Positions 2,224 to 21,597 of a stretch of DNA of 64,000 nucleotides are shown one piece after another; the first letter of the stretch is position 1, and each line of letters opens with the position of its first letter. The stretch is from Candidatus Marinacidobacterales bacterium (GTDB taxonomy: Bacteria > Acidobacteriota > Vicinamibacteria > Marinacidobacterales > SMYC01). Below the pieces are notes generated by a model, which saw only the letters and a program-made list of their open reading frames with translations, did no database searches and was not told the origin of the DNA. The position numbers were made by a program, and so were the translations under genes. The DNA lies in the NCBI GenBank assembly GCA_965237955.1, contig OZ250169.1, forward strand, positions 3,040,001 through 3,104,000. The letters are read 5' to 3'.

Positions 2224-2422
2224 TGACAAACCCAAGAGGAGGGCGCGGGATGAGCGTGTGCACGCTGACGCCCTTATTAGACGCGATGGCGTTCGCCGGC
2301 ACACGCAGGCCAACGGACACTAGCATTCAAATGCCTCTAGCGGCGTAGCAACATATCTGGACTCCTCTAGTCAAGCCCCTTTCTTAATAAATCTTCCATC
2401 GAAGCTGCGCATCCATCGCGTC

Positions 2423-2618: not shown

Positions 2619-2663
2619 CTTTTGGAAGGGAAAAAGGAAAACACGAAAGTGGAGCCTCTAAGT

Positions 2664-3695
2664 CTAAGCGGCCATCGGCGACTGGAATTCACTCTCGCGG
2701 GTGGAGACGGCCCAGACGATCCGGGCGAGTTTGTTGGCGACAGCAATCACGGCCTTGTTGTGTCCCCGCGAGCGGTGGACCTTCCGAGCCCAGGCGCGGA
2801 GCTTGTCGGGCGGGCTCTTACTGACGTTCGCCGCGCGGAGCACGGCGCGCCCGCCCTGGGTGAGGAGCATACGGAGGTAGGAGTCGCCACGCTTGGTGAT
2901 GCGTCCGAGGCGGCGAATGTCGCCACTGGAGTTTTCCTTGGGAACTAGGCCGAGGTAGCTCGAGAAGCGGCGCCCCGATGGGAAGCGGCGAAGATCGCCG
3001 ACGAAGCCCACGATGGCGGTCGCGGTCAGAAGTCCGATGCCGGGAATGGCGAGAAGTCGTTGGACTTCAGGAAGCTGCTTGGTGAGCGCCTTGAGCTCGT
3101 GCTCGATGCCAGCGCACTTGTCCTTGAGTTCTCGAATCTCGGAGCAGGCATCACGGAGATGCGAACGGAGCACGTCGGGCAAATCAGAATCAGCGTCTTC
3201 GACGAGTTCGAAGAGGGCGGGCACGACGAAGTGAGCGCCCTTTGGGATGATGAATCCGAGTTCGCGCAGGATCCCGCGTACGGCATTGATGCGTGCGGTC
3301 CGTGTGGAGAGCCATCCTGAGCGCAGGCGATGGAGCGCGGCGAGGCTGTGCTGGTGCACGGACTTAATGGGCACGGGAAGAATCTCCTCGTTCCTGTAGG
3401 CCTCGAGCAACGCTTTGGCGTCGGCGCGGTCGTTCTTGCTCCCGCGTCGATAGGGCCTCACGAGGTGAGGTGGGAGCAGGACGACGTCGTGTCCCAACCT
3501 TCGGAACGTCCTTGCCCAGAAGTGAGCAGAGCCGCAGGCTTCGAGAAGCACGGTGGCAGCGCTCTGTTTGGCAAAAAACGACACCAACTTGGGTCGACTC
3601 ACACGGAGTTGCTTGGACACCTTCCCCGCTTCTCCCGAGATGGCAATCTCGAAGACGTTCTTTGCAAGATCCACAGCGATCGTCGTATCTTTCAT
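2664..3695 (-). CDS. IS110/IS1111 DEDD recombinase (transposase)
   Basis: VDLAK, LEACG, KNDRADA (DEDD), PGIG, ENSSG (catalytic Ser region), KRGD.YLR; AGGAGG RBS before MKDTT. Confidence 0.95.
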   Translation of the reverse strand: MKDTTIAVDLAKNVFEIAISGEAGKVSKQLRVSRPKLVSFFAKQSAATVLLEACGSAHFWARTFRRLGHDVVLLPPHLVRPYRRGSKNDRADAKALLEAYRNEEILPVPIKSVHQHSLAALHRLRSGWLSTRTARINAVRGILRELGFIIPKGAHFVVPALFELVEDADSDLPDVLRSHLRDACSEIRELKDKCAGIEHELKALTKQLPEVQRLLAIPGIGLLTATAIVGFVGDLRRFPSGRRFSSYLGLVPKENSSGDIRRLGRITKRGDSYLRMLLTQGGRAVLRAANVSKSPPDKLRAWARKVHRSRGHNKAVIAVANKLARIVWAVSTRESEFQSPMAA

Positions 3696-4099
3696 TCGGA
3701 CTCCTCCTTTTCGATGCGTATTCGACTGACTTTGGCACATCGATGCCGTCTATGTCAGCGGAGGAGTCCATTCCATCACTTGATGGCAGAAGCACCGCTT
3801 CACGAGCACGTCATCTCGAACGCGCGCGAATCCCGCACCCTCGCCGTTCCGCGGGACACGCTACTTCCCAGGCTTCATTTCCGACGAGCTGCGGGTAAAG
3901 GGAAATCACAACCCTTCGGAGCAACGCCTCTAGTCCAGTTTGACAGCCGGGTAACGAACGAACATGGGAATACGCTGTCGCGGGGTTTCTTTCGGGCGCC
4001 TGACCTCAACCTTAGAAGTATTGCACAGACCATTCACCGCCAACCGTTTACAGGCTTATCGGGGGGAAACATGAGGACTGCCAGCAGCTCGGAACATCG

Positions 4100-7000
4100 A
4101 TGAACTATCCCTTGAGACACATCTCCATCCGCGTCCCTTGGCACGATACCGGATGGGACGGGCGCGTCTGCGCCGCGCCGCGGCTGAATGGCGCTTGCCT
4201 TAAGCTGAAGCGCATTGCAGAAGACCGAGACGACGATGCAGAGGAATCCGTTGCGGGAAGGAGCATCAAGGATCTCCTGCAGGCGAAGTGGCCATCGTGT
4301 ATTGCCGAGCGCTCGAGTTTCATGGCGCCCTTTGAGTATGTCCGCGAGGCCGATCATCCTTACAACCGCGGCCCTGAGACAAGCCACGGCCACTTCAAGC
4401 GAACTCCTCTGCGCCATCCACCCTACTCTGCGCCGGCGGTACCCTTCGCCTGGGTGCTTCGCGAGGCGATGGAAGCCTTTGGCAAGGAGCATGCGCTGGA
4501 TGTTCAGGCCGAACGTGAACCCGACCTGGGCTTCAAAACCCAGTGGGTTCAGGAGCACCTGAACCAGACTGTTCTGCTCGACTGTTTCGCCAGCCACCTC
4601 AAGTCCGAACACTCCCTCTGCTTCTTCTACGCCAAGCAGGTACCATTCGTGGAGGCCTCAGCCGGCGTCCGCATTCTGATCGGCGTCGGACGCGTGCTGC
4701 ATGTCGGTGCCGCGCAGGAGTACGCCTACACTACGAAGGATCTCAAAGGCAAACTGCGCTCTATGTTGTGGGAGCGCATGGTTCAGCACTCCATTCGTCC
4801 CGACTTCAAGGATGGCTTCTTGCTGCCGTATCACGCGGCCATCGAGAAGGCTGCTGAAGACTCAGAGTTCGATCCGGCAGAGATCGCTGCTTTCTCACCC
4901 ACCGATCGACTCCTCGAGTTCTCGCATGCCTCGCAATTGGTCAGCCATGACGGTGCCATTGCATCGTTGCTCGCGTGCGCCGAATCGCTTCGCAAGGCCA
5001 AGGGAGTCCTGCTAGGGCCGTGGGACCAGTGCCTGCAGTGGATCGACGCGCGTCTCGGTGAACTATGGAAGGCGCGAGGCCCGTGCCCTGGACTCGGCTC
5101 GGCGCTGTCCGCGTTCGGGTTGCAGTTCGGCACTTTCGTCGCCCGCGCCCTCGCCGAGAAGGCGGGTGCCAACACCGATCCCTGGCCGTTGGTTGACAAG
5201 ATGTTTGCCGATCCCAATAAACACCTGCCAGACCCACTGGCCCAGAGCGTCGGCAAGACGCTGTGCAGCAAGTGGTACCGTCTACCCGATGATCGCCGTG
5301 CGCTGCTCAAACTCGTCAGCCGCTTCGAGATCACACGGGAGCAGGCGACCGCTCTCTACGTTCAGGAGGAGCGTGCCAAGGCGGGAATCGACACGCACGA
5401 CACAGCCATTCTCGCCAACCCGTACCTGTTCTACGAATTGACGCGCTTGACTGGCGACCCCGTCAGCGTCTGGACCGTCGACCGGGGTGTCTTTCCGGAC
5501 GAGGTCATCCGAGAGAAGCACCCGTTGCCTGCGCCGACGGCTTTGGACGCCGGAACGGATGCCCGACGGGTCCGCGCGTTCACCGTCAAGGTTCTTGAAG
5601 ACACGGCCGGCGTCGGCAACACGCTCCTTCCGCAGGATCAGGTGGTCCTCGGCATCCGCGGGCTCACTCTCCAGCCACCTTGTGAGGTGGACGCCGACCT
5701 GATGAACGTCGCCAAGGACGACTTCGAGGATTCAGTCGACGAGCTCGCCATGGCCAACGGAGCTCCGGCCCTCCAGTTGGGTCGTCTGGCGCAGGTGGGA
5801 GCGACCATCCGCGTGGCGATCGATAAGCGGGTCAAGGGCAAGCGCATGACCGTCGCGGCCGATTGGCGAAAGCTCCTCGACGCCCACCTCGCCGCGCAGT
5901 CAACTGGAGAGCCCGACGAACTAGAAGAGAGCGCCCGGGCGGAGAAGACTGCGGCGCTGACTGAACTTGCAGAGGCGCGGCTCTCAGTGCTGATCGGCCC
6001 CGCCGGAACAGGCAAAACCACCTTGCTGTCGGTGCTCTGTTCACACCCAAAGGTCGCGGCGGGCGGAATCCTGCTACTTGCGCCTACCGGAAAGGCGCGC
6101 GTGCGCATGGAGCAGTTCACCCAGGGCCTGAAACTCAAGGGCTACACTATCGCCCAGTTCCTGAGTCCGCACCGCTACGACGGCACCACCGGCCGCTATC
6201 GGCTTTCGGACAAACCAATCGAGGCCGGCGAGCAAACGGTCATCATCGACGAGGCTTCGATGCTGACCGAAGAGATGCTCGCGGCGCTGATCCAAGCGCT
6301 CAAGGGCGTGCACCGGCTCATTCTCATCGGTGATCCGCGCCAGCTCCCGCCCATCGGCGCGGGTCGCCCGTTCGTGGATATCGTCAAGCGCCTCACTCCG
6401 CAAGACGTCACGGAGAAGTCCCCGCGCGTCGGCCCGGGCTATGCTGAATTGACCATCCGCCGCCGCCAGGCAGGAGAGGATCGCGAAGACCTGCAGCTTG
6501 CGGAATGGTTCAGCGGCGCACCTATTGCGGCGGGCGAGGATGAGGTGTTCGACAAGGTGGTGCACACCGGCCGAAGCCAGCACGTTCGCTTCGTGCAGTG
6601 GGAGACCGCTGACGATATGCGCTCAAGCCTCATCGACGTCTTGGTGAGTGAACTGAAACTCCCCGACGGCACGCTGGCTCTCAATGGCCCCGATGACATC
6701 GCTGGCTTCGATGCCACGCTCGGGGGTGAGGCCTGGAACGACATGCGCTTCTTCAATCCTCGCAGAGACGAGAAGGCCGGTGCCGCCGAGACGGCCGCGG
6801 GCTGGCAGATCCTCTCGCCGGTACGGTCCGCGGCTCATGGTGTGCCCGACCTGAATCGCTTCATCCACAAGCAGTTCCGGCAGACGATGATCGATGCCGC
6901 GCGCGAGGTGGGGTGGCGGCGCAAGTATCCCAAGCCCATGGGGGCCGAGGAGATCGTATACGGGGACAAGGTCATCAACCTAGTGAACACCGACCCAAAA

Positions 7001-7861
7001 CTCTGGTGGAACAAGCACCGCAAGGTTTACCCGGCGAAGGATGACGCCTACATCGCCAACGGCGAAATCGGTATGGCTGTCGGCTTCTTCCGTAAGAGGG
7101 GGGGGCCGGACTTTCGCTGGAAACTCGAGGTCGAGTTCTCTTCGCAACCTGGCTTCAAGTACGACTTCACCAGTCGTGACTTTGGGGAAGAAAGCAATGC
7201 GGTCCTTGAACTCGCCTACGCGCTGACGGTGCACAAGTCCCAGGGCAGCGAATTCGGTACGGTCATCCTCGTGTTGCCGAACCCTTGCCGCCTGCTCTCG
7301 CGCGAGTTGCTCTATACTGCACTTACTCGCCAGAAAGATCGCATCGTCATCCTGCACCAGGGCCCGCGCACCGAGTTGCGTAAGTATTCCTCGGACGACC
7401 GCTCGGAAACCGCGCGGCGCTTGACCAACCTCTTCGTCGCGCCGTCACCCGTCGAAATCGATGGCCGCTTCTTCGAGGATTACCTGATCCATCGCACCGC
7501 GCGCGCCGAAATGGTGCGATCCAAATCTGAAGTGATCATCGCAGACCATCTTGCCAACAATGGCGTCGCGTACGGCTACGAACAGCCGCTCACCATCGAG
7601 GGCATCACCAAGTACCCTGATTTCACCATTGAGGACATAGAGTCAGGGTTGACGTTCTATTGGGAGCACTGCGGAATGCTACATGTGCCCAGCTACCGCC
7701 GCCGTTGGCAAGAGAAGCTCGGGTGGTACCGAGCCCACGGCATTCTGCCGCTGGAAGAAGGGAGCGGCAAGAACGGCACACTGATCATTACGCGCGACGA
7801 AGCCAATGGAAGTATCGACTCCGCGAAAATCAATACCCTCATTACAGACGTGCTCAATTGA
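4100..7861 (+). CDS. RecD-like SF1B helicase with long N-terminal region and C-terminal PD-(D/E)XK-type nuclease
   Basis: GPAGTGKT, IIDEASM, GDPRQLPPI, YALTVHKSQGSEF, LYTALTR; C-terminal RSKSE...YPDF...YWEH. Confidence 0.85.
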   Translation: MNYPLRHISIRVPWHDTGWDGRVCAAPRLNGACLKLKRIAEDRDDDAEESVAGRSIKDLLQAKWPSCIAERSSFMAPFEYVREADHPYNRGPETSHGHFKRTPLRHPPYSAPAVPFAWVLREAMEAFGKEHALDVQAEREPDLGFKTQWVQEHLNQTVLLDCFASHLKSEHSLCFFYAKQVPFVEASAGVRILIGVGRVLHVGAAQEYAYTTKDLKGKLRSMLWERMVQHSIRPDFKDGFLLPYHAAIEKAAEDSEFDPAEIAAFSPTDRLLEFSHASQLVSHDGAIASLLACAESLRKAKGVLLGPWDQCLQWIDARLGELWKARGPCPGLGSALSAFGLQFGTFVARALAEKAGANTDPWPLVDKMFADPNKHLPDPLAQSVGKTLCSKWYRLPDDRRALLKLVSRFEITREQATALYVQEERAKAGIDTHDTAILANPYLFYELTRLTGDPVSVWTVDRGVFPDEVIREKHPLPAPTALDAGTDARRVRAFTVKVLEDTAGVGNTLLPQDQVVLGIRGLTLQPPCEVDADLMNVAKDDFEDSVDELAMANGAPALQLGRLAQVGATIRVAIDKRVKGKRMTVAADWRKLLDAHLAAQSTGEPDELEESARAEKTAALTELAEARLSVLIGPAGTGKTTLLSVLCSHPKVAAGGILLLAPTGKARVRMEQFTQGLKLKGYTIAQFLSPHRYDGTTGRYRLSDKPIEAGEQTVIIDEASMLTEEMLAALIQALKGVHRLILIGDPRQLPPIGAGRPFVDIVKRLTPQDVTEKSPRVGPGYAELTIRRRQAGEDREDLQLAEWFSGAPIAAGEDEVFDKVVHTGRSQHVRFVQWETADDMRSSLIDVLVSELKLPDGTLALNGPDDIAGFDATLGGEAWNDMRFFNPRRDEKAGAAETAAGWQILSPVRSAAHGVPDLNRFIHKQFRQTMIDAAREVGWRRKYPKPMGAEEIVYGDKVINLVNTDPKLWWNKHRKVYPAKDDAYIANGEIGMAVGFFRKRGGPDFRWKLEVEFSSQPGFKYDFTSRDFGEESNAVLELAYALTVHKSQGSEFGTVILVLPNPCRLLSRELLYTALTRQKDRIVILHQGPRTELRKYSSDDRSETARRLTNLFVAPSPVEIDGRFFEDYLIHRTARAEMVRSKSEVIIADHLANNGVAYGYEQPLTIEGITKYPDFTIEDIESGLTFYWEHCGMLHVPSYRRRWQEKLGWYRAHGILPLEEGSGKNGTLIITRDEANGSIDSAKINTLITDVLN

Positions 7862-7872
7862 TCTTTTGAGTT

Positions 7873-7978
7873 TGATCCAGTTTCGTGGACACCTTCTGAA
7901 AGGCGGATACGATGTCCACGATGGCAAAGACAACGCAGCCCCGGCGACGTCGCCTGGAGTTTGATGACGAATTCAAGA
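7873..7978 (+). mobile_element. IS3-family left end and orfA start (fragment)
   Basis: TGATCCAGTTTCGTGGACAC.. similar to 59982-60105. Confidence 0.75.
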
Positions 7979-8108
7979 TGGCTGCGGTCCGGCTGGTTGA
8001 GCCTTCTATTTATTCATTCGCGCGCACCGAACTTGATTAGTCTCCGGTCTGCCGGGACCATGCCGACATGATTTCGTCGTTTGTTCGCGCTCTCGTCTCT
8101 GCCTTCAA
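7979..8108 (+). mobile_element. Left end of rve element family 3 (fragment)
   Basis: GCCTTCTATTTATTCAT.. plus MISSFVRALVSAF start, repeated at 8550, 16210, 32178, 41766, 61001, 62330. Confidence 0.7.
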
Positions 8109-8109
8109 C

Positions 8110-8392
8110 CCCCTCGTGTCATGTGGAAATCGATTCGCACGACCAATACTCTGGAGAATCTCAACCGCGAGTTTCGACGCCGGACGAAAACCCAAGCGTC
8201 GTTCTCCAGCGAGGAGTCCGCGGTCGCTTTGCTGTTTGGGCTTATCGCCTCTGGCCAGATTCAACTACGGCGCATCGACGGCTACCAACGTCTGAGTGAG
8301 GTTCTCGAACACGCGGAGGTTGCCGCCTGATCTGATGCCCTGATGACAGAGTGGAGGGCGCCGTTCTTTTTCCACGAACCTCGGGACACATC
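8110..8392 (+). mobile_element. IS256-family transposase C-terminal fragment and right end
   Basis: IRTTNTLENLNREFRRRTK motif; end TTTTTCCACGAACCTCGGGACACATCC also at about 16640-16665. Confidence 0.75.
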
Positions 8393-8549
8393 CAGCGCCC
8401 AAGTCTCTGCGCGTGCGTGGCAGGGTGGGACACCCCGTCCTGTGCCAAAACTCGGCCCTTTTGAAATAGACCACAAATCAGCAGCTTAGACGCCCTTGGA
8501 ATCCGCGCAGAAGCGAGGGTATCTCGCGCCGCAGGGTTGTCTTCCGACC

Positions 8550-8707
8550 TGTGCCTTCTATTTTATTCATCCGCGGGCACCAGCTCGCGACGAGCCTTGA
8601 AGGCAGAGATGAGAGCAAGAACAAACGACGAAATCATGTAGGTATGGTGCCGGTAGACCGAAGACCAATCAAGTTCGGGGCGCGCGGATGAATAAATAGA
8701 AGGCACA
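8550..8707. mobile_element. Miniature rve family 3 element with both terminal IRs
   Basis: TGTGCCTTCTATTTTATTCATCCGCG ... CGCGGATGAATAAATAGAAGGCACA. Confidence 0.75.
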
Positions 8708-8955
8708 GGAGCTTCCGGTTCTTGGCTGGAAGGTGCTTCCGCAATCAAGTGTTGGTGACTGCCGCGTAACCCGCTCGTGTGCTAGAGTTTGAGCCTGATT
8801 TCGGGAGACGCAGTTTTTTCGACGATGCGGGCTGGGCTGACCACACGGTGCCTGACATTCAGGGACACCTTCGTGTGCACGCCGACATCCTTATCAATGG
8901 CGTTCGCCGACACAGGCAGGCCAGCTGACATTAGCATTCAAACACGGCGTAGCAA

Positions 8956-10382
8956 CATATCTGGACTCCTCTAGTCAAGCCCCTTTCTTAATAAATCTTC
9001 CATCGAAGCTGCGCATCCATCGCGTCGTGACGAGTGGGTCAGACTGCAAACGTATCTTCGGCCTCAGTGAGGAGCGTCTTGGGTGCTCCGGGCCATGATG
9101 GAAAATCCGCGCGCGAGGAGCCAATCACTTTGAACGACCTCTTAGGGCCAGTGTTGCTATCGGCTTGACCCCGCGCCGGTCCGACCGGTACGCCATCAGT
9201 TGGATGGGTATCGTCGCAGCCTCTTTTGGAAGGGAAAAAGGAAAACACGAAAGTGGAGCCTCTAAGTCTAAGCGGCCATCGGCGACTGGAATTCACTCTC
9301 GCGGGTGGAGACGGCCCAGACGATCCGGGCGAGTTTGTTGGCGACAGCAATCACGGCCTTGTTGTGTCCCCGCGAGCGGTGGACCTTCCGAGCCCAGGCG
9401 CGGAGCTTGTCGGGCGGGCTCTTACTGACGTTCGCCGCGCGGAGCACGGCGCGCCCGCCCTGGGTGAGGAGCATACGGAGGTAGGAGTCGCCACGCTTGG
9501 TGATGCGTCCGAGGCGGCGAATGTCGCCACTGGAGTTTTCCTTGGGAACTAGGCCGAGGTAGCTCGAGAAGCGGCGCCCCGATGGGAAGCGGCGAAGATC
9601 GCCGACGAAGCCCACGATGGCGGTCGCGGTCAGAAGTCCGATGCCGGGAATGGCGAGAAGTCGTTGGACTTCAGGAAGCTGCTTGGTGAGCGCCTTGAGC
9701 TCGTGCTCGATGCCAGCGCACTTGTCCTTGAGTTCTCGAATCTCGGAGCAGGCATCACGGAGATGCGAACGGAGCACGTCGGGCAAATCAGAATCAGCGT
9801 CTTCGACGAGTTCGAAGAGGGCGGGCACGACGAAGTGAGCGCCCTTTGGGATGATGAATCCGAGTTCGCGCAGGATCCCGCGTACGGCATTGATGCGTGC
9901 GGTCCGTGTGGAGAGCCATCCTGAGCGCAGGCGATGGAGCGCGGCGAGGCTGTGCTGGTGCACGGACTTAATGGGCACGGGAAGAATCTCCTCGTTCCTG
10001 TAGGCCTCGAGCAACGCTTTGGCGTCGGCGCGGTCGTTCTTGCTCCCGCGTCGATAGGGCCTCACGAGGTGAGGTGGGAGCAGGACGACGTCGTGTCCCA
10101 ACCTTCGGAACGTCCTTGCCCAGAAGTGAGCAGAGCCGCAGGCTTCGAGAAGCACGGTGGCAGCGCTCTGTTTGGCAAAAAACGACACCAACTTGGGTCG
10201 ACTCACACGGAGTTGCTTGGACACCTTCCCCGCTTCTCCCGAGATGGCAATCTCGAAGACGTTCTTTGCAAGATCCACAGCGATCGTCGTATCTTTCATT
10301 CGGACTCCTCCTTTTCGATGCGTATTCGACTGACTTTGGCACATCGATGCCGTCTATGTCAGCGGAGGAGTCCATTCCATCA
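8956..10382 (-). mobile_element. IS110-family (IS1111 group) element, copy 2
   Basis: Same ends and sequence as copy 1. Confidence 0.92.
9268..10299 (-). CDS. IS110/IS1111 DEDD recombinase
   Basis: Protein identical to 2664-3695 in the ORF track. Confidence 0.95.
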   Translation of the reverse strand: MKDTTIAVDLAKNVFEIAISGEAGKVSKQLRVSRPKLVSFFAKQSAATVLLEACGSAHFWARTFRRLGHDVVLLPPHLVRPYRRGSKNDRADAKALLEAYRNEEILPVPIKSVHQHSLAALHRLRSGWLSTRTARINAVRGILRELGFIIPKGAHFVVPALFELVEDADSDLPDVLRSHLRDACSEIRELKDKCAGIEHELKALTKQLPEVQRLLAIPGIGLLTATAIVGFVGDLRRFPSGRRFSSYLGLVPKENSSGDIRRLGRITKRGDSYLRMLLTQGGRAVLRAANVSKSPPDKLRAWARKVHRSRGHNKAVIAVANKLARIVWAVSTRESEFQSPMAA

Positions 10383-10414
10383 CTTGATGGCGGAAGCACC
10401 ACAGCGGGTACACG

Positions 10415-10617
10415 CCGTGGACCTCCTCGTCAAACCAGACCGTCAAATCGTCCCGGCGGCGCAGGACCTTCGTTGCATTCCGCCCAGTTGCGAACGTGGT
10501 ACTTCTTCTGTTTCGGGTGTTTGTACCGGCTGCGCTTGGGATACTTCATGGTCAAACATACCCCGGCCACCACCATAGGCAGATTTCGCTCTCAGCCAAG
10601 AGCGGTGCAACAACGCC
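10415..10617 (-). mobile_element. IS5-family left end and degenerate 5' transposase fragment
   Basis: Reverse match to about 38729-38920 with indels. Confidence 0.75.
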
Positions 10618-10679
10618 TCGGGAGCTACGAGACCTGTCCTGGGCCACTCGTGGAGGGCAGGCGGTATTGTCGCACCCTT

Positions 10680-11525
10680 CTACTTTTTCTTGCGCGTCCC
10701 GGCGCGAGCCGTCGGCTTCCTGAACGGGGTAGAACGCCTATCTGGTTTCCTTCCGGTCTGCCCAGCGCGACGACTCTTCTTGGCGACCGGCGCAAGATCG
10801 TCATCAGAGACCCCACCCATATCGATGTCGACGCCGAAGACCGATGACAGCCTGTCGGATTTGAGCACCCTGCCACTCCGGGACTTGTCTCCAGTCGGTG
10901 GCTGGTCGACGGCGGCCTCCACCATCTCGGCTGGGTCGACACCTCGCAAGGTGAACAGCAGCTCCGGCTCGTGGTCGAGGCGTGCGCCTACGCCGTAGAG
11001 CGTCGCCGCCACGTGCTTGCACATGGTCGCCCAGTCGGGGCACGAGCAACTCAGCGAGATCTCCCGAGGGGCAGGAAACAATCCCTCTCCCTTGCAGGTC
11101 ACGATCTCCATCACGCCCTTGGAGATGGAGCCCTGCAGCAGCTCGACCAGCGAGTCGATTTTGCCTGCACATTGGCCCTTGATGTTGGTCCAGCGCTTCT
11201 TCGCCAGGCTTTTGATCTGGGTGTCCACCTCATAGATGTCGGAGCCGCTGACGAGAGATCGCACACGCCCCGCCTCGATCTGAAGATCGATCACCGAACC
11301 GTTGTGCACGTAGGTTCGGCCGCGAGGCAGGCGGTTCGAGTAGTCGCTGTACGACTCGAGGTTCTTGCACCAAGCATCACCCCAGAAGGTGGTTGCGATC
11401 TTGCGGCCCACGATCTCGATCGGTGAGATCTCGCGTCCGGCTTTTTTCATCTTAGCGACCCTCTTCGCGGCATGACGGCGGCGCGCTGCCACGGAGACGT
11501 AAGGGCGCCACGAGTACCAGCCCAT
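10680..11525 (-). CDS. SWIM zinc-finger protein (SNF2-associated)
   Basis: NRLPRGRTY, CSCPDWATMCKH SWIM motif, LD.EP.LLF.LRG. Confidence 0.85.
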   Translation of the reverse strand: MGWYSWRPYVSVAARRRHAAKRVAKMKKAGREISPIEIVGRKIATTFWGDAWCKNLESYSDYSNRLPRGRTYVHNGSVIDLQIEAGRVRSLVSGSDIYEVDTQIKSLAKKRWTNIKGQCAGKIDSLVELLQGSISKGVMEIVTCKGEGLFPAPREISLSCSCPDWATMCKHVAATLYGVGARLDHEPELLFTLRGVDPAEMVEAAVDQPPTGDKSRSGRVLKSDRLSSVFGVDIDMGGVSDDDLAPVAKKSRRAGQTGRKPDRRSTPFRKPTARAGTRKKK

Positions 11526-11570
11526 GAGCTCACCTCACGCTTTCTTGTGACGAGCGCGTTCGTGCATCTT

Positions 11571-11672
11571 CTATTCCTCCAAGGCGCTGCTCAAGTCGAG
11601 GGACACCATAGAGATCAAATCCTCGTTGCTCATCTCCGTCAAGGCCGACTCCGCACCACCTGAAAGGAGCTT
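11571..11672 (-). pseudogene. C-terminal stub of SNF2-family helicase
   Basis: Translates KLLSGGAESALTEMSNEDLISMVSLDLSSALEE*, upstream of the SWIM gene; cut at an rve-1 end stub. Confidence 0.6.
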
Positions 11673-11909
11673 GCCCGTCCTGTGCGGTGCTTCCGCAATC
11701 AAGTGTTGGTGGCTGCCGCGTAACCCGCTCGCGTGCTAGAGTTTGAGCCTGATTTCCAGAGACGCAGTTCTTTCGGCGATGCCGACTGAGCTTACCACGC
11801 GGTGATTGACGTTCAGAGACATCTTCGTATGCGCGCCGACATCCTTATTTATGGCGTTCGCCGACACAGGCAGGCCAACTGACACTAGCATTCAAACGCG
11901 GCGTAGCAA

Positions 11910-12993
11910 CATATCTGGACTCCTCTAGTCAAGCCCCTTTCTTAATAAATCTTCCATCGAAGCTGCGCATCCATCGCGTCGTGACGAGTGGGTCAGACTG
12001 CAAACGTATCTTCGGCCTCAGTGAGGAGCGTCTTGGGTGCTCCGGGCCATGATGGAAAATCCGCGCGCGAGGAGCCAATCACTTTGAACGACCTCTTAGG
12101 GCCAGTGTTGCTATCGGCTTGACCCCGCGCCGGTCCGACCGGTACGCCATCAGTTGGATGGGTATCGTCGCAGCCTCTTTTGGAAGGGAAAAAGGAAAAC
12201 ACGAAAGTGGAGCCTCTAAGTCTAAGCGGCCATCGGCGACTGGAATTCACTCTCGCGGGTGGAGACGGCCCAGACGATCCGGGCGAGTTTGTTGGCGACA
12301 GCAATCATATCTGGACTCCTCTAGTCAAGCCCCTTTCTTAATAAATCTTCCATCGAAGCTGCGCATCCATCGCGTCGTGACGAGTGGGTCAGACTGCAAA
12401 CGTATCTTCGGCCTCAGTGAGGAGCGTCTTGGGTGCTCCGGGCCATGATGGAAAATCCGCGCGCGAGGAGCCAATCACTTTGAACGACCTCTTAGGGCCA
12501 GTGTTGCTATCGGCTTGACCCCGCGCCGGTCCGACCGGTACGCCATCAGTTGGATGGGTATCGTCGCAGCCTCTTTTGGAAGGGAAAAAGGAAAACACGT
12601 ATCTGGACTCCTCTAGTCAAGCCCCTTTCTTAATAAATCTTCCATCGAAGCTGCGCATCCATCGCGTCGTGACGAGTGGGTCAGACTGCAAACGTATCTT
12701 CGGCCTCAGTGAGGAGCGTCTTGGGTGCTCCGGGCCATGATGGAAAATCCGCGCGCGAGGAGCCAATCACTTTGAACGACCTCTTAGGGCCAGTGTTGCT
12801 ATCGGCTTGACCCCGCGCCGGTCCGACCGGTACGCCATCAGTTGGATGGGTATCGTCGCAGCCTCTTTTGGAAGGGAAAAAGGAAAACACGAAAGTGGAG
12901 CCTCTAAGTCTAAGCGGCCATCGGCGACTGGAATTCACTCTCGCGGGTGGAGACGGCCCAGACGATCCGGGCGAGTTTGTTGGCGACAGCAAT
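11910..12993 (-). repeat. Head-to-tail array of three IS1111 right-end/bridge-RNA modules (396, 292, 396 bp)
   Basis: TATCTGGACTCCTCTAG restarts at 11912, 12308, 12600 and 12996. Confidence 0.92.
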
Positions 12994-14422
12994 CATATCT
13001 GGACTCCTCTAGTCAAGCCCCTTTCTTAATAAATCTTCCATCGAAGCTGCGCATCCATCGCGTCGTGACGAGTGGGTCAGACTGCAAACGTATCTTCGGC
13101 CTCAGTGAGGAGCGTCTTGGGTGCTCCGGGCCATGATGGAAAATCCGCGCGCGAGGAGCCAATCACTTTGAACGACCTCTTAGGGCCAGTGTTGCTATCG
13201 GCTTGACCCCGCGCCGGTCCGACCGGTACGCCATCAGTTGGATGGGTATCGTCGCAGCCTCTCTTTTGGAAGGGAAAAAGGAAAACACGAAAGTGGAGCC
13301 TCTAAGTCTAAGCGGCCATCGGCGACTGGAATTCACTCTCGCGGGTGGAGACGGCCCAGACGATCCGGGCGAGTTTGTTGGCGACAGCAATCACGGCCTT
13401 GTTGTGTCCCCGCGAGCGGTGGACCTTCCGAGCCCAGGCGCGGAGCTTGTCGGGCGGGCTCTTACTGACGTTCGCCGCGCGGAGCACGGCGCGCCCGCCC
13501 TGGGTGAGGAGCATACGGAGGTAGGAGTCGCCACGCTTGGTGATGCGTCCGAGGCGGCGAATGTCGCCACTGGAGTTTTCCTTGGGAACTAGGCCGAGGT
13601 AGCTCGAGAAGCGGCGCCCCGATGGGAAGCGGCGAAGATCGCCGACGAAGCCCACGATGGCGGTCGCGGTCAGAAGTCCGATGCCGGGAATGGCGAGAAG
13701 TCGTTGGACTTCAGGAAGCTGCTTGGTGAGCGCCTTGAGCTCGTGCTCGATGCCAGCGCACTTGTCCTTGAGTTCTCGAATCTCGGAGCAGGCATCACGG
13801 AGATGCGAACGGAGCACGTCGGGCAAATCAGAATCAGCGTCTTCGACGAGTTCGAAGAGGGCGGGCACGACGAAGTGAGCGCCCTTTGGGATGATGAATC
13901 CGAGTTCGCGCAGGATCCCGCGTACGGCATTGATGCGTGCGGTCCGTGTGGAGAGCCATCCTGAGCGCAGGCGATGGAGCGCGGCGAGGCTGTGCTGGTG
14001 CACGGACTTAATGGGCACGGGAAGAATCTCCTCGTTCCTGTAGGCCTCGAGCAACGCTTTGGCGTCGGCGCGGTCGTTCTTGCTCCCGCGTCGATAGGGC
14101 CTCACGAGGTGAGGTGGGAGCAGGACGACGTCGTGTCCCAACCTTCGGAACGTCCTTGCCCAGAAGTGAGCAGAGCCGCAGGCTTCGAGAAGCACGGTGG
14201 CAGCGCTCTGTTTGGCAAAAAACGACACCAACTTGGGTCGACTCACACGGAGTTGCTTGGACACCTTCCCCGCTTCTCCCGAGATGGCAATCTCGAAGAC
14301 GTTCTTTGCAAGATCCACAGCGATCGTCGTATCTTTCATTCGGACTCCTCCTTTTCGATGCGTATTCGACTGACTTTGGCACATCGATGCCGTCTATGTC
14401 AGCGGAGGAGTCCATTCCATCA
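12994..14422 (-). mobile_element. IS110-family (IS1111 group) element, copy 3
   Basis: As copy 1 plus a 2-bp CT insertion near 13260. Confidence 0.92.
13308..14339 (-). CDS. IS110/IS1111 DEDD recombinase
   Basis: Protein identical to copies 1 and 2. Confidence 0.95.
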   Translation of the reverse strand: MKDTTIAVDLAKNVFEIAISGEAGKVSKQLRVSRPKLVSFFAKQSAATVLLEACGSAHFWARTFRRLGHDVVLLPPHLVRPYRRGSKNDRADAKALLEAYRNEEILPVPIKSVHQHSLAALHRLRSGWLSTRTARINAVRGILRELGFIIPKGAHFVVPALFELVEDADSDLPDVLRSHLRDACSEIRELKDKCAGIEHELKALTKQLPEVQRLLAIPGIGLLTATAIVGFVGDLRRFPSGRRFSSYLGLVPKENSSGDIRRLGRITKRGDSYLRMLLTQGGRAVLRAANVSKSPPDKLRAWARKVHRSRGHNKAVIAVANKLARIVWAVSTRESEFQSPMAA

Positions 14423-14486
14423 CTTGATGGCGGAAGCACCGCACAGGACGGGGTCAAGAGCCGTGCTTCGGCTACCCACCCAACTT

Positions 14487-15968
14487 CTACCGGTCGGCAA
14501 GGGGTTCCGACAGCAACCGCCGCGCCGCTGCCAGGAGTCGATCCTTCCAGGCAACGCGTTCCCGCCAGTGGTCGGGGATGGCGTTCAGGCCGTAGAGGGC
14601 GCCGGCGAGCTGCCCCGTCACTGCTGCTACCGTATCGGCGTCGTCGGCCAGGTTGGCCGCGAGCAGCACCGCGCTGCGGAAGTCTCCGGTGCGGGCGACT
14701 GACCAGATGGCGGCTTCGAGCGTGTGAACGACGTACCCGCTGGAGCGGATCGTATCCCGTGTCCGTCCTCGCCAGCTACCGGCTATGACCTGAGTGATTG
14801 CCGCCGCTCCCGTGAACCGTCTCGGAGCCAGAACGTCCGAGAACGGTGACCCGCCAATGGCGTCTGCCAGGAGTGCGCCGAACGCCCGGCAGGCGTCCAC
14901 TGCTTCCTCGGCTCCGTGGGTCGTCCGGGACTGGTCGGCGGCTGTTGCGAGCAGGCGCGGCCGGTCGTGCCTGAACCGGAGCGCAACGGGGGCGAGCCGC
15001 ATCAGCGAGCCGTTGCCTGCGCTCAAGGGATCGGTCGAACCCGCGACCGGGTCACCCGTCCGTAGGTACCGGGTGAGCGCTTGGCAGGTCGTGTTTCCGA
15101 TGTCGAAGCAGTCTCCGCTCCACGAGTAGTCTCCGTCTCGCCACCACTTCACGAAACGGTCCATCAGGTCCCGGCAGTCGAGCGTCTTGGATTCCGCCAG
15201 GCTGTCGGCAAGGGCCAGCGCCATGGCCGTGTCGTCGGTCCAGGCACCGGCCGGCAGATCGAAGGGGCCGCCACCGACCATGTCTTCTAGACGCGGCTGC
15301 GTATCGCGAGAGCAGAATTCGAGCGTCGTGCCGACCGCGTCGCCCACCGCCAGACCGAGGAAGGCCCCGAGCGCCCGGTCGTGGATGTCGTCCGCGGTCC
15401 GGGATGGAACCGATGGTGCTCGTGCCGAACACTGCCTCACGTGGGCCAGCTGGGAGTCGTTCTCGATGGTCCCTTCGTGGGCGTCGCGCACGCGGCGGAT
15501 CGCATCGTCCGGTTGCACGCCCAACTCCACCAGCAGGCGGGCTGTGATGGTCCCGGCACGTCCCAGACCACCCCGGCAGTGGAGCAGCACGTCGAAGCCG
15601 AGCCGCAGCCGGTTCCTGATGGACTCGCCGGTGGCCTTCCAGGCGTGCTCGAAGTCCTGTTCCGGCGCCTCTCCGTCGGGAATCTGGGCATGCCACCACT
15701 CCATGTGCCGGTCTCGAACCGCCCTCGGGAGATCGTGCACCTTCAGACAGGCGAGCTCTTCGTGGGTGATCAGGCTGACCACCGCAGTCGCTCCCCAGTG
15801 CTGAATCGCGTCGAGGTCGGTGTCGAGATCCCGCTTCCAGGGCCCGGATATTGCGTAGCGATCGATCCTACCGGGGCACTGCGAGAAGCCGATTCGGCCC
15901 CGGCCGTCGCCCAGGGTCATCGCCGTGATGCGGAGTGGGTGGCTCTCGCTGGTTCTTGCCGTCGGCAT
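14487..15968 (-). CDS. Protein-tyrosine/dual-specificity phosphatase fused to ADP-ribosylglycohydrolase (DraG/ARH)
   Basis: HCRGGLGR P-loop; GLAVGDAVG, WTDDTAMA, GNGSLMR, DADT ARH motifs. Confidence 0.88.
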   Translation of the reverse strand: MPTARTSESHPLRITAMTLGDGRGRIGFSQCPGRIDRYAISGPWKRDLDTDLDAIQHWGATAVVSLITHEELACLKVHDLPRAVRDRHMEWWHAQIPDGEAPEQDFEHAWKATGESIRNRLRLGFDVLLHCRGGLGRAGTITARLLVELGVQPDDAIRRVRDAHEGTIENDSQLAHVRQCSARAPSVPSRTADDIHDRALGAFLGLAVGDAVGTTLEFCSRDTQPRLEDMVGGGPFDLPAGAWTDDTAMALALADSLAESKTLDCRDLMDRFVKWWRDGDYSWSGDCFDIGNTTCQALTRYLRTGDPVAGSTDPLSAGNGSLMRLAPVALRFRHDRPRLLATAADQSRTTHGAEEAVDACRAFGALLADAIGGSPFSDVLAPRRFTGAAAITQVIAGSWRGRTRDTIRSSGYVVHTLEAAIWSVARTGDFRSAVLLAANLADDADTVAAVTGQLAGALYGLNAIPDHWRERVAWKDRLLAAARRLLSEPLADR

Positions 15969-15990
15969 GGACTCTATTCTCTAACGGGGC

Positions 15991-16084
15991 TGTGCTCCGC
16001 AAAAAAGAAGATTGGCCAGAAGCAGCCAAACATAGTAGGTCTAGAACGTGCAATCAACGCCGGATCGATTTATTGCGGAGCACA
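15991..16084. mobile_element. 94-bp MITE-C
   Basis: TGTGCTCCGCAA...TTGCGGAGCACA; homologues at 49972-50065 and 62657-62750. Confidence 0.75.
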
Positions 16085-16109
16085 GGGCAACAGTAAACGA
16101 AGCAAGCAG

Positions 16110-16410
16110 CCGCGGATGAATAAATAGAAGGCACAGGCGATTGATCAGCGCGAGCGCAGCGTAAAGTCTTAGCGTCATCTCACCAACACTTAATGGCGGA
16201 AGCACCCGCAACGAGAGCCGCGGCCGTTTCACCGAACGGCGGAGCACGGCGAGCTGCTGCCGAAGAGCGACATTCTCGAGAGCCAGCTCGTGGCGAGCCT
16301 TGAAGGCAGAGACGAGAGCGCGAACAAACGACGAAATCATGCCGGCATGGTGCCGGCAGACCGGAGACTAATCAAGTTCGGTGCGCGCGGATGAATAAAT
16401 AGAAGGCACA
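16110..16410 (-). mobile_element. Mosaic of rve family 3 ends/5' fragment and a MITE-B end
   Basis: MISSFVRALVSAFKARHELALENVALRQQL; CCAACACTTAATGGCGGAAGCACC. Confidence 0.7.
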
Positions 16411-16703
16411 ACTATCGCGGCTCCGATCTGAACGTTTTCGTCTCGGCGCTGAAGGACAAGTCAAACATTGAGGTTTGCGTTCGCGAGTGGTACGGGGGCT
16501 CCTCGAACTAACACCCATTGGCGATCGTCGAGAACCCTGTAGCGAAACTTACCAACGCCACACCTCACCGATGTTCTCGATCCGGGCCAGTCCGTCGCTT
16601 GATCTGATAGCATGATAAGGAAGTGGAGGAGCGCCGTTCTTTTTCCACGAACCTCGGTACACATCCGGGGATGGGGATTATTTAGACTGTCAGAGGGAAC
16701 GAC

Positions 16704-18345
16704 ATGGCTACACACTCTGAGTATTTGGCAGGCCTGACATTAGAGGACCGCACTGCGCTTGAAGGTCGCCTGCTCGAACGGCAGTCCGGAAAATGCTTCA
16801 TTTGTGACGACACCATCGATCCCGTACTCCACCAGGATCAGCTCGACGTTGACCATACCGTCCCGCTGGCCGAGCAAGGCGCAGACGACGAGCACAACTT
16901 CGCTCTGACTCATGCGAGCTGCAATCGGAGCAAGGGCGCGTCCGACCTGCGAGTGGCACGCCGCATGGCGGAATTCGAGAAGCTCCAGCAGCAAGCCCTT
17001 GAGCGTGGCGAACGCGGAGCGAACCTGGGACACGTGCTTGCCAAGCATGGCGGGGCCAAGGCTGCCATTCGACTCCGGAATTCGGGTGGCAGGATCGAGT
17101 TCACTCTGTCGGCCGCCGGTGACGAAACGATTCAGAGTGTTCCCCTGTATCAAGATCCCATGAGCGGCATGATGTACTTCTTTAGCGTGTTTCCGCTGGA
17201 GTACATCCACCACGACGACTGTATCAACCCGCGTTCCATTGGGAGAAGCATACGCCCGCTGATCGAGGAGTTCTTGCGGAAGCGACCCCAACTGCACGTT
17301 GGCCTGGCGTGGTGGGCACCGGAAGAAGACGGCACAGGAAAGATCAAGATGTTTGACGGACAGCACAAAGCGGCGGCCCAGATTCTCATTGGCAGCCGAG
17401 AGCTTCCGGTGCGCGTATTCGTCAAGCCAGATCTTAACGTTCTGGTCCAGGCAAACACCAACGCCGCTGATAAGCCAAGGCAGGTCGCGTTCGACACGGC
17501 GGTTCTGCGGCACCTCGGCAGCACCCTGTACGCCGAACGAGTCAAGCGGTACCGGGAGTTAAAAGGACTCATAGATGACGATGATTCCTTCAGCGAAAAG
17601 GACCTCGTAGCGTTTTTCCACGGCGAGCGCAGAGAGGTACAGAAATACATCGTCGACTGGGTGCGGGACTCGGTGAACTACCACCGGGACAATCGCCTCA
17701 AGGAGTATGTGGAATGGGCCGGCAAGAAGGGAGATAGGTCGCTCGCTTACGCGACCCTGGAACGAACATTCTTCGCGGAATTTCTTTGCAAGTACGCCCT
17801 CGACACGCCGATCGGACTCGGCATGGACCGTGGAGACAATCCGCGAATGATCGAGCGAGACCAGCTGGTCCGGCTGATGAGTCTGTACGCCGACATCTTC
17901 TTCGTGGGTCAGTGGGATCCGGACCTGGGCGGACGACGTCTGGAAGGGCCGCCTCCAGAAAGGGGAAGTCATCGCCGAGGGACACCTTCGGGCGTGGCGC
18001 GTTACGCGCGAGGAGATTCTGGCTATGATCATGCAGCACGTCCGGCTTGCGATCGAGAACTACTTCGCCTGGCAAGGCAAACTAATCGAAAAGGACCGGT
18101 TGATGCAGTACCGGCTTCCAGAAGACGTCTGGGCGCGGGTCGAGACATTTCTCCGCCGTCTGTCAGGTCTGCCGGCGTGGATCGACAAGAACCTCAGCAA
18201 CACGGTCTTCGGTGCTAAGCAGAATCGAGATTTCTGGGCGGAGGTCTTCAAAACAGGAAGAAGCACGACCGGTGTTCAGGTTTTCACAGGGCCCATTAAC
18301 GTCATCGACATGATGCAAGAATCAGGCTCAGGGCGGACACGATGA
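16704..18345 (+). pseudogene. HNH endonuclease plus DGQHR/ParB-like domain protein, single frameshift near 17947
   Basis: CFIC..DVDH..NFALTH.SCN; MFDGQHK; removing one G from GAAGGGCC joins the 16704 and 18025 ORFs (LEGRLQKGEVIAEGHLRAWR). Confidence 0.7.
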
Positions 18346-18878
18346 AGATCCCCGGCAAAGCAAACGTCAACAAATCGCTAGTGGACCTCAGGAAGAGTCT
18401 CAAGGAGTGTCTGGCCCAGGTCAATCAGGAGGCAGGGATGTTGCTCTCCAAGGGCAGCTATGCGCGCGCCGAATCGCTAGTCAAAGTCGCGAAGTCCGTC
18501 GACACTTTCCGCGTCGACGTTGAGAGCCTCCACACACGGTGGAAGGAGATCAAAGGCGGACCTCAAGGTACCGCCAAGACGCCACAAACTCCGCTCTGGG
18601 AGTACTACCAGCCAATCCTTCAGGCCCTTATAGATCTCGACGGTGCTGCCAAGTCCGCTGAGATTGAGCCAGCAGTCGGACTCCTGCTGAAGGGTCGTCT
18701 TGTTGAAGGCGATCTGAGCATCATGGCCAATGGGAGCGCGCGCTGGCAGGCCATGATTCGCAGAGCCAGAAAACACATGGTGAAGGAAGGCCTTCTCGAC
18801 AGCGATACGGGGATGGACTGGAAGATCACGCAACAGGGACGCAAGGCGGCCGCAGCCAGGAAGAACGCAAAGGGTTGA
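18342..18878 (+). CDS. Mrr N-terminal-like winged-helix protein
   Basis: YYQPILQALIDLDG..D....NG..RW...IRRAR..MVKEGLL....W.IT..G; ATGA overlap with the upstream gene. Confidence 0.75.
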   Translation: MKIPGKANVNKSLVDLRKSLKECLAQVNQEAGMLLSKGSYARAESLVKVAKSVDTFRVDVESLHTRWKEIKGGPQGTAKTPQTPLWEYYQPILQALIDLDGAAKSAEIEPAVGLLLKGRLVEGDLSIMANGSARWQAMIRRARKHMVKEGLLDSDTGMDWKITQQGRKAAAARKNAKG

Positions 18879-19063
18879 GGCCATTCCCTACGAACGTTTG
18901 AGCGGTCCTCTCTGAAGACTGTATGGCTGAGGCTTCGGCATTGACGCGGCCGGATGGGCGACACTTGGCATCGGGCTCTAACGGTACCTGTGGCGCGCGG
19001 TGTTTGAGGCCGGCGACGTCATGCGACCTCTTGCCCGGGCAACCTGTGAGTATCGGATAGACA

Positions 19064-20497
19064 ATGGCCAACCCATTCTTCGATCACCCCATCCTGAATT
19101 CGCCCTATGAGTGCCCACAGCGGCACTGGGAGTTGGACTTCGAGGGGCAGCCGACGCATCAGGTCTTGGACCGCCGTCGGCGCGCCGAGTTCATCACGCC
19201 GATTCCAAAGCCGAAGAAGCGGAAAGACCGGCAGCAGGCCGAGATAGTCTTCGACGAGGGGAAAGGCCTCTCCACCAAGGAACAGCAATACGATCCGACC
19301 TCCATCATCAATGAAGTGCGTCAAAACGTGGATGTGTGGCGGGACTTGCCTAACCCCAACCAGTGGCAGGTCAGCCCGGAAACCGCGCGCCTGCTCCAGC
19401 ACTGGCGGCGCCACCCGTTCGGCAGCATCCGCCCGTTCTTTTGTCAGGTGGAAGCCGTCGAAACTGCGATCTGGCTGACCGAGGTCGCGCCACAATCCAA
19501 GGGCGGTAAACGGTTGCTCAACCACTTGGCCAGAGCCAACAAGGACGCCAATCCCGAACTGATGCGCCTCGCGCTGAAGCTGGCCACCGGGGCCGGTAAG
19601 ACAACTGTCATGGCCATGCTGATCGCGTGGCAGACCATCAATGCGGTGCGCCGCCCCGGCAGCAAGTCCTTCACCCGAGGCTTCCTGGTCGTCGCACCAG
19701 GTCTGACCATCAAGGATCGGCTCCGCGTCCTCCAGCCGAACGACCCGGACAGTTACTACGCCAGCCGAGAGCTCGTGCCGCACGACCTGCTCGATGACGT
19801 GAACCGTGCCAAGATCGTTATCACCAATTACCACGCCTTCAAGTTACGCGAGCGCATCGAGCTGTCTGCCGGCGGACGCGCGTTGCTCAGGGGCCGCACC
19901 GGCGACGAGCTGAACACCACTGAAACCGAAGGGCAGATGCTCCAGCGTGCCATGCCTGACCTGATGGGCATCAAGAACATCCTGGTGCTCAACGACGAGG
20001 CGCACCATTGCTACCGCGAGAAGCCACCGGAGCCGGACGATGCGCATCTGAAGGGCGACGACAGAAAGGAGGCCGAAAAGAACAACGAAGCGGCCCGCCT
20101 CTGGATCTCCGGTCTCGAAGCTGTGAATCGTAAGCTCGGCCTCTCCCGTGTGATCGACCTGTCCGCCACGCCATTCTTCCTGAGCGGGTCCGGCTATGCC
20201 GAGGGCACGCTCTTCCCATGGACGATGAGCGACTTCTCGCTGATGGACGCCATTGAGTGCGGCATCGTGAAACTGCCACGCGTCCCGGTCGCGGAAAACA
20301 TTCCCGGCGACGAAATGCCCGTCTATCGCGACCTTTGGAAGAACATCCGCAATAAGATGCCTAAGAAGGGGCGCAGCCAGGGCGGAGAGCTTGATCCGCT
20401 CAAACTGCCCACTCGACTGCAAACCGCTCTTGCGGCGCTCTACGGGCACTACGAGAAGACCTTCACGCTGTGGGAGGCAGGGGGCATTCGTGTGCCA
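19064..20497 (+). pseudogene. Type III restriction Res-like SF2 helicase, 3'-truncated
   Basis: PILNSPY, FFCQ.EA.ET, ATGAGKT, NDEAHH, DLSATP; interrupted by rve-1 end at 20498. Confidence 0.8.
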
Positions 20498-21597
20498 CCC
20501 CGTCCTGTGCCAAAACTCGGCCCTTTTGAAATAGCCTATAAATCAACAGCTTAGAGTCTGTGTTTTGCGACCGGGTTAAGGGCCGTGGGCTTCACAATCG
20601 TCTGGCCCGAGGGTGTTATCTTTGGAGCCATCATGACGTACCACGTGCAATTCTTACTGCTCGTTCTGGCGGGCTGGGTCAACCGCCAGCAGCAGGATGT
20701 GATTGATTAGCTGCGAGAGGAGAACCGTGTGCTCCGAGCCGGGCTTCGGGGTTGCGCCAGAGTTTCACTTCAACCACCACCAGATGCCCCTCTGGCGTGA
20801 TGAACAGGTTGTCCACCGACCCAACGTGGAGCGGAAGTTCCATACAGACGGGCACGAGAGGGCCGATACCCGGCTCGATCTGGTCCATGGGCAGACACGT
20901 CGGATGCTGGTGGATGAGTTCTTGCAACCAGCGCTCGTCCAAGTTGGAGGCTTGGTGCAGGCGCGTGGATTCGCCTTCCGACACCAGAATTGGCGTTCCG
21001 CTCGCGGTAGTCAATTCGTGCTCCAGGGTTGATCTCGCCGGTCGGGTCGGCCTCGGCCGACGTCGGCAGGTTCTTGAGTGCGCCTCGCAGGCGCGTATAT
21101 CCCCACGTCGGGTTCTCCCGCGCCACGCGCACAATGAGACTCACGGATGTCCTTCGCCGTCGGAGGTCGGCCTGGACTCCGGTTCTTGCTGCCATCGTAC
21201 TTGGCTGCGATGAGGCAGCGGTACCAGCGCAGAAGCGTAGCGGGTGTGGCAACGGACGCAATCTGGGCCAGCGCCTCGCGGCCCAAAGCCTGGGCCTTGA
21301 CCGCGAGCCTGCGCCGCTCGTCGTCCGAGAGCCTGAGACGCTTGCCCCGAAGCCCGGCTCGGAGCACACGGTTCTCCTCTTGCAGGTAGTCGATCACATC
21401 CTGCTGCTGGCGGTTGACCCAGCCAGCTAGAACGAGCAGTAAGAATTGCACGTGGTACGTCATCATGGACCTGAAGATAACACCCTCGGGCCAGACGATT
21501 GTAAAGCCTACGGCCCTTGGCCCCGGCGCAAACACAGACACTAAGCTGCTGATTTATGGCCTATTTCAAAAGGGCCGAGTTTTGGCACAGGACGGGG
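20498..21597. mobile_element. Two inward-facing rve-1 left-end fragments enclosing a nuclease fragment
   Basis: CCCCGTCCTGTGCCAAAA at 20498 and its complement at 21580-21597; both carry [11 protein letters not shown] starts. Confidence 0.75.
20740..21040 (-). pseudogene. NucS-like PD-(D/E)XK endonuclease fragment
   Basis: E.WLQELI...P, G.VDNLF..PEG.LVVVEVKLWRNPEAR. Confidence 0.6.

Follow-up and report, generated by a model that had tools for sequence, protein, structure and literature searches.

Three preprints come closest to what is described here on the expansion of insertion sequences (ISs) of the IS110 family. Hu, Xie, Yang and Rubin (bioRxiv 10.64898/2026.08.14.744561) list tandem non-coding units beside IS110 transposases (n = 468) as well as whole-element tandems (n = 437), and report at the unit boundaries a one-sided donor match, which they read as recombinase-driven expansion in place, the asymmetry between the two ends being called unresolved. 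Xie et al. (bioRxiv 10.64898/2026.08.31.748434) describe half-match recombination by IS621, for which one arm plus the core suffices, and excision by single-stranded copy-out, and Sun et al. (bioRxiv 10.1101/2025.10.25.684509) report top-strand-only reactions of CazIS110-1, with tandem cargo repeats in 3 of 96 colonies as transient by-products. Here, we analyzed a stretch of 64,000 nucleotides (the window) from Candidatus Marinacidobacterales bacterium, whose genome (GCA_965237955.1, OZ250169.1; hereafter G000) is a single 8.13-Mb contig, the window being G000:C1:3040001-3104000. In this window, a full IS1111-group element of the IS110 family is followed by three copies of its own right-hand tail, which are very probably a by-product of the element's own bridge recombinase. 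End-anchored IS110 tandem units are already known from the 2026 preprint of Hu et al.; what this locus adds is a polarity rule, by which only one arm of the cut is duplicated.

Read along the minus strand, the full element (14422-12996) is followed by the units (12995-12600, 12599-12308, 12307-11912) and by the core TG (11911-11910):

12996..14422, minus strand: full IS1111-group (IS110 family) element, with left core TG at 14422-14421 and right-end cut after AGATA at 12996.
12600..12995, minus strand: unit 1, 396 bp, from TG-ATTGCTG in the last transposase codons to the right-end cut, RNA core at 12828-12684.
12308..12599, minus strand: unit 2, 292 bp, from CG-TGTTTT in the non-coding tail to the right-end cut, RNA core at 12536-12392.
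11912..12307, minus strand: unit 3, 396 bp, starting as unit 1 does, RNA core at 12140-11996.

A sequence-only reading of this DNA had proposed such a 396/292/396 array behind one full IS, with junctions exactly at the recombination core, and both were recovered at this position, the joints being AGATA/TG-ATTGCTG twice and AGATA/CG-TGTTTT once (slashes mark the borders of the core). The three units show no difference from the majority copy of the element, and all four guide segments of the predicted bridge RNA are intact and the same in each, as had been claimed; of the further claim that every unit contains the whole RNA, it is the guides and both predicted loops that stand. Of the modules, described as transposase-free, the 396-bp ones include the final ~80 nt of the transposase gene and so are not purely non-coding. 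Every unit closes with CCAGATA, and its start agrees with the other donor arm at three of six positions (396 bp) or at none of six (292 bp). Measured as Hu et al. define tandems, the units are at least 50 bp long, at least 95% identical and adjoin the transposase, and their boundaries keep one donor arm only.

Tail units recur beyond the window. They stand at 4 of the 19 right ends in G000, namely the window's three plus units of 338, 338 and 475 bp, and all six (292-475 bp) hold the four guides unaltered. Among five related genomes, from which 72 exact right-end motifs were found and retrieved, units occur at 5 of the 60 distinct right ends and in two genomes, G012 (19, 29, 46, 372, 382, 428, 454 and 565 bp) and G033 (284 bp). 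The 19-, 29- and 46-bp units of G012 lie at the same right-end cut and are devoid of any RNA. Among 118 metagenome loci, one (L248), belonging to a relative, has a unit of 102 bp near the end at this same cut, where the search pattern itself forced NG. The right-end arrays that the sequence-only reading had suggested looking for in other genomes are thus present in two of the five relatives and on one metagenome contig. In G012, the 565-bp unit of locus L032 and the adjacent full copy share a variant found in two of the eight full-length copies, which supports copying from the neighboring element. Perfect tandem loci with units of at least 40 bp number 15 in the 8.13 Mb of G000, five of which end at this element's cuts, and unit lengths span 16 to 793 bp irrespective of content. 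A pattern search for right-end duplications of 15-45 bp in 55 genomes of the order returned G012 only. Within G000, we found no free-standing module at a new target, including 155 free target repeats, no reciprocal deletion (a truncated element joined to the right target arm) among left-end fragments, and no uncollapsed intermediate in the form of a full circle in a resident copy. As side observations, three G012 loci (L031, L033, L041) hold patchwork units assembled from several pieces of the element and containing small deletions, which may reflect template-switching synthesis or consensus errors over mixed alleles, and 29 of 32 right ends in G033 (L061-L089) carry a duplication of ~20 bp just inside the end, whose boundary is not the cut and which has been propagated along with the element. 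A repeat match in L136 was discarded, as it is not tandem.

Duplication also affects the host DNA on the other side of the element. Of 23 distinct left junctions in G000, three show a duplication of the host DNA that ends at CATCAAG, the largest case (G000:C1:2861983-2862387) being seven tandem units of 48-62 bp, in the order 61-62-61-61-48-48-62, which end at the left target arm and start at three NG sites; it looks like a small repeat array, but without spacers. The two other flank units measure 79 bp and 16 bp, the latter in three copies that share their flank. None of the 155 free target repeats shows a flank duplication (p = 0.002 vs. occupied ones). Moreover, a second IS110 family in the same genome (28% identity in the aligned part), which has a long left end, the target TCAAC/TG/GTTCGA and the same guide order as the first element, forms four tandem copies at G000:C1:5882270-5889016, with units of 1734, 1541 and 1734 bp whose joints connect the right-end cut with TG sites lying either 142 bp beyond the left end or 51 bp within it. 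At four further places (G000:C1:289233, 947390, 3137944 and 7884684), left target arms are joined at NG to unrelated DNA, possibly as one-sided joins to distant sites.

What these duplications have in common is that all units take their core from the start site and end at the cut. The second base is G in 17 of 17 distinct start sites, two of which derive from garbled units, vs. a background of 0.276, and 11 of the 17 read TG. Duplications affect the upstream arm at 12 loci and the downstream arm at none (p = 0.0005); G000 contributes four right ends out of 19 and three left junctions out of 23, and the five relatives add five of their 60 right ends. Over the six bases that follow the core, agreement with the donor arm amounts to 2.33 positions, 1.50 being expected (p = 0.006 for the 12 right-end sites; p = 0.015 with the 10 clean ones), and no enrichment was detected for the discarded arm. 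These p-values are uncorrected and come from eight measures on three subsets, enrichment being confined to the retained-arm match and T at +2. The resemblance of internal starts to the guides is weak and restricted to one arm. CG starts tend to go with donor guides reading CG (2/5 vs. 0/7), not significantly (p = 0.15). Among 52 loci of other IS110 families in G012, G015, G018 and G033, we found two 1609-bp whole-element tandems, one element with a short relative behind it, and no clean partial unit.

The link between this polarity and the chemistry of the recombinase goes through the predicted bridge RNA, which sequence comparison supports as encoded by the right end:

13080..13224, minus strand: predicted bridge RNA core of the full copy, with four guide segments.
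13197-13190 and within 13170-13162, minus strand: target guides UAGCAACA and AAGUG+AU, matched to the target arms.
Within 13141-13131 and 13095-13087, minus strand: donor guides UUCCAUCA and AGAUACG+UU, matched to the donor arms.

The segments follow one another as UAGCAACA, AAGUG, UUCCAUCA and AGAUACG, the top-strand complement lying 5' of the bottom-strand match, which is the IS1111 order of Siddiquee et al. (PMC11187229). Among 29 distinct relatives parsed out of 116 loci, the first guide and the insertion site vary together (5.83 matches out of 8 vs. 4.20 in shuffled pairings, with 0 of 20,000 shuffles as high), and a weak handshake covariation links the target to the two bases that follow AGAUACG (0.69 vs. 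0.46 of 2, p = 0.008, 36 relatives). The match of AGATACG(T) at the unit 2 joint to the RNA, which the earlier reading had noticed, is real and consists of the donor guide and the first handshake base. The target core is TG despite a donor guide reading CG, as in 36 of 36 parsed relatives. Guides are identical in 23 of 25 RNA copies of G000, and the two variants are full elements; one of them, a 91%-identical copy at G000:C1:5245812-5247238, has altered target guides and a correspondingly different insertion site, which makes it, on sequence grounds, a case of natural re-targeting inside one genome by a single full element. Three distant relatives likewise combine altered guides with matching altered targets. 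No RNA run contained more than 0.18 of the query words.

Read on the opposite strand, this RNA has the same layout as in IS621, where cleavage falls 3' of the core and the downstream arm is left with a 5'-phosphoserine (PMC11208158). In 41 full copies of the element, the left junction is TG in 41 of 41 and the three non-TG cores all lie at the right junction, which places the exchange at the left edge of the core; this pattern agrees with what the IS621 chemistry predicts. On this basis, the arm that undergoes duplication would be the one bearing the 5'-phosphoserine, both at the right end and at the left flank, which suggests that mis-terminated copy-out synthesis may underlie the polarity rule.

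The particular route that we consider, nick-primed copying followed by mis-joining inside the element, has to our mind an even chance of being the right one. The recombinase would nick one strand at the right-end core, and the free 3'-OH would prime synthesis by strand displacement, in the manner of copy-out excision. Once the penultimate C of the new 3' end can pair with the G of the guide, that end would attack the phosphoserine borne by the displaced strand, and where a wrong 3' end inside the element is re-joined, a tandem duplication in place would result. An early stop would yield tail units, a stop at the true donor end whole-element tandems like those found in 3 of 96 colonies with CazIS110-1, and an overrun past the left end flank units. 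Since mis-joined junctions would retain one donor arm, they could be re-cut, so that arrays would grow. Put more generally, and only tentatively, the phosphoserine-linked recombinase may close copy-out at almost any 3' end with a penultimate C, so that only the enzyme-bound arm, host DNA included, is duplicated.

Several points weigh against this account. The window units lack a 2-nt insertion that the adjacent full copy carries relative to the majority copy, so the insertion would have to be younger or gained by conversion; only one other copy has it, and such changes do recur, this second carrier sharing its upstream flank with three copies that lack the insertion. The orders 396-292-396 and 61-62-61-61-48-48-62 need re-cutting of inner junctions or later shuffling, not growth at the outermost junction alone, and sister-strand transfer predicts identical junctions. 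Consensus errors may account for several G012 units, which are garbled, and flank duplications, seen in G000 only, are absent from 39 left junctions of relatives. The polarity rule comes from two families with one guide order, the 52 loci of other IS110 families holding no informative case. Lastly, Hu et al. list 'LD-only' units, for which IS1111 and IS621-type elements are not separated as presented there, and these would contradict the rule if IS621-type elements are included.

Two other routes would leave the duplication to the same recombinase, and it is nick-primed copying and these two taken jointly that make an origin as a by-product very probable. In a half-match single-strand transfer between sisters, the enzyme-bound arm would be joined to a cleaved pseudo-site on the other sister and replication or repair would fix the duplication. 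Such a transfer yields the same junctions, permits units of 16-46 bp, and draws on half-match and direct top-strand transfer demonstrated in vitro; the donor-arm match at the starts, weak as it is, suits enzymatic cleavage there, though it is weak for a cleavage site, and neither the one-sidedness of the duplications nor the absence of reciprocal deletions in G000 is explained by the transfer itself, which we regard as rather unlikely. Circles offer a second route, stripped of any function: partial circles running from an internal site to the right end could re-enter at the right end, or a full circle could insert into a resident copy, the duplicated left part then collapsing. One-donor-match circles and their reintegration have been reported (Hu et al.), ISPpu9 forms modular circles (PMC12288879), and there is a difference of 2 nt between the units and their neighboring full copy in the window, and of three positions near genome position 3027k. 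But host-flank units cannot be obtained in this way, nor can units of 16-48 bp, a size too short for duplex circles, and neither a solo module at the 155 free targets nor an uncollapsed intermediate was seen in G000, so that we hold this route unlikely. The 2-nt insertion was itself rejected as proof of origin from another copy. Plain microhomology slippage was rejected too, as several junctions share only 0-2 bases and yet all end at one base, and so was simple self-insertion, which should have left behind the left part of a broken resident copy, and none is present.

The sequence-only reading had gone further, in that self-directed recombination would make mobile guide-only modules, raising guide dosage or providing spare guides free to evolve new targets. 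Its first half holds insofar as the element's own recombinase is the likely cause, but no module stands alone in G000. As for a retained guide function, the six right-end units of G000 all hold the four guides, the flank units being short, and a naturally re-targeted copy does exist. Yet that copy is a single full element, no unit has an altered guide (the divergence among units that the reading had called for was looked for in the six G000 modules, and 0 of 6 show it), and some 18 copies that are full or nearly so already code for the same RNA. A sigma-70 promoter scan of window positions 11600-14600 gave no site, and the unit junctions lack even the weak -10 present at the circle junction. 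Published tandem repeats reverted (Sun et al.). The 102-bp unit in L248 also speaks against such a function. The RNA-free units of 19, 29 and 46 bp at the same cut in G012 and the host-DNA units at the other end show that matching guide-free duplications occur at both element ends, which is why a by-product is preferred over a stock of spare guides; we consider a function in guide supply very unlikely. An assembly or consensus artefact is more improbable still. It could draw on the garbled G012 units and on eight public runs which, as contigs, show no right-end-to-internal joint even though the element and one empty site are present, but contigs drop rare variants and are thus uninformative on the joint, and exact copies of differing lengths with one end base and NG starts recur at four loci here, at five in two genomes and on one metagenome contig.

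The element itself and its target comprise the following features:

13308..14339, minus strand: DEDD transposase/recombinase, 343 aa from the second ATG (PF01548 + PF02371; NF033542).
14405..14414, minus strand: left subterminal inverted repeat TGGACTCCTC, at element position 9.
13000..13009, minus strand: right subterminal inverted repeat GAGGAGTCCA.
14423..14440, minus strand: left target arm GGTGCTTCCGCCATCAAG, the outer 18 bp of the inverted repeat of the host element.
11686..11911, minus strand: rest of the host repeat, with core TG (11911-11910), right target arm TTGCTA, body and far inverted repeat.

The transposase, for which the open reading frame list takes an upstream ATG (358 aa), carries the IS110 domain pair (PF01548, E = 2.6e-12; PF02371, E = 6.2e-25) and scores 308.9 bits with NF033542 of NCBIfam against a cut-off of 140; the top plasmid match of the protein bears an ISPa25 family annotation at 46% identity. 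With subterminal inverted repeats of 10 bp each and a long right end (about 310 bp of non-coding DNA past the stop codon, about 80 bp ahead of the start), the element belongs to the IS1111 group, as had been proposed. It sits at CATCAAG/TG/TTGCTA in the inverted repeat of an abundant host repeat element of ~244 bp, an intact copy of which lies at genome positions 704979-705222. An empty target site in public run X4 appears as a 1425-bp skip with two letters shared and, together with the junctions and the table of cores, indicates site-specific insertion at a 2-nt core without target duplication. With up to three mismatches, the 18-bp arm has 219 matches in G000, of which 155 are unoccupied, 25 are followed by this IS and 39 are other. 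Relative to known IS1111 elements, this target is new, namely the end of a repeat of which G000 has about 180 copies, occupied and free together; IS4321/IS5075 reportedly also target the inverted repeat of another element. The host repeat family has an inverted end of ~24 bp, several interior types, pairs 105-244 bp apart and no evident target duplication, and its pieces lie in the window at 8732-8957, 11686-11911, 14423-14440 and 16181-16206 as well as genome-wide; no autonomous partner was evident between facing ends, and Rfam matched no family in window positions 7500-17000. Many relatives of the IS (L220-L337) adjoin sequences of the GTTAGGC/GTTGGGC type, which we take to be reminiscent of integron attC ends and which may point to descent from attC-targeting elements.

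Around the array, the composite is bounded by inverted copies of CCCGTCCTGTGC (11674-11685 and 14441-14452), with which a different abundant element ends; this second element also cuts short several left-end fragments of the IS1111-type element. Further full copies in the window (2354-3778, 8958-10382 and about 50635-52061) all lie in the same host repeat and have no tail units. The neighbors at 4100-7861, 10680-11525, 14487-15968 and 16704-20554 resemble a defence island, with an AAA_30/UvrD_C helicase, a CxC...CxH protein (presumably SWIM-like, with no Pfam match), a phosphatase fused to an ADP-ribosylglycohydrolase, and HNH, Mrr_N and ResIII proteins. A 405-bp tandem pair with 87% identity lies at 27418-28222.

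If true, the polarity rule would offer a testable account of the asymmetry of IS110 expansion: IS621-type elements should show the opposite duplicated side, and short host-DNA duplications would be expected beside bridge-recombinase edits. Short duplications beside insertions would escape size filters of 50-100 bp. The arrays would then be a fossil read-out of how IS110 copy-out ends.

Among described systems, ISEc11, ISKpn4 and ISPa11, as presented in PMC11187229 and PMC11208160, share with this element the DEDD transposase, the subterminal inverted repeats, the long right end and a top-strand guide that comes first (PMC13626964 served as context only). ISPpu9 and MITEPpu9 (ssr9) have RNA-bearing modules in tandem behind an IS110 transposase gene, as here, but ssr9 possesses both its own ends, forms its own circle and occurs alone (PMC12288879), whereas the units described here have no left end and never stand alone in G000, so that they have neither the own ends nor the solo copies of a MITEPpu9-like module. 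TIGR arrays likewise place tandem guide-RNA units beside an IS110-related protein, their expansion mechanism being stated as unknown in that account (PMC12045711); their units are regular with different spacers, while here lengths vary and guides are identical. The likeness is superficial, the differing guides of a TIGR- or CRISPR-like array being absent. A search for left-flank arrays or a polarity rule found no published account, supplements of the preprints not covered, and one for flank duplication together with phosphoserine and strand displacement in IS110 found nothing. Closer to our observations, CazIS110-1 gave whole-cargo tandems only, as far as that preprint describes them, without the internal or flank starts seen here, and the study of IS621 consists of in vitro and editing data, with no tandem duplication in place reported in its text. 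Hu et al. demand units of at least 50 bp; the term IS1111 is absent from their main text, which mentions 3' regions homologous to flanking DNA and describes no left-end target-arm arrays, NG rule or link to the phosphoserine arm. Next to these reports, one genome here resolves the by-product to the base at both element ends and in two IS110 families, with a strict preference for one side and starts that obey an NG rule.

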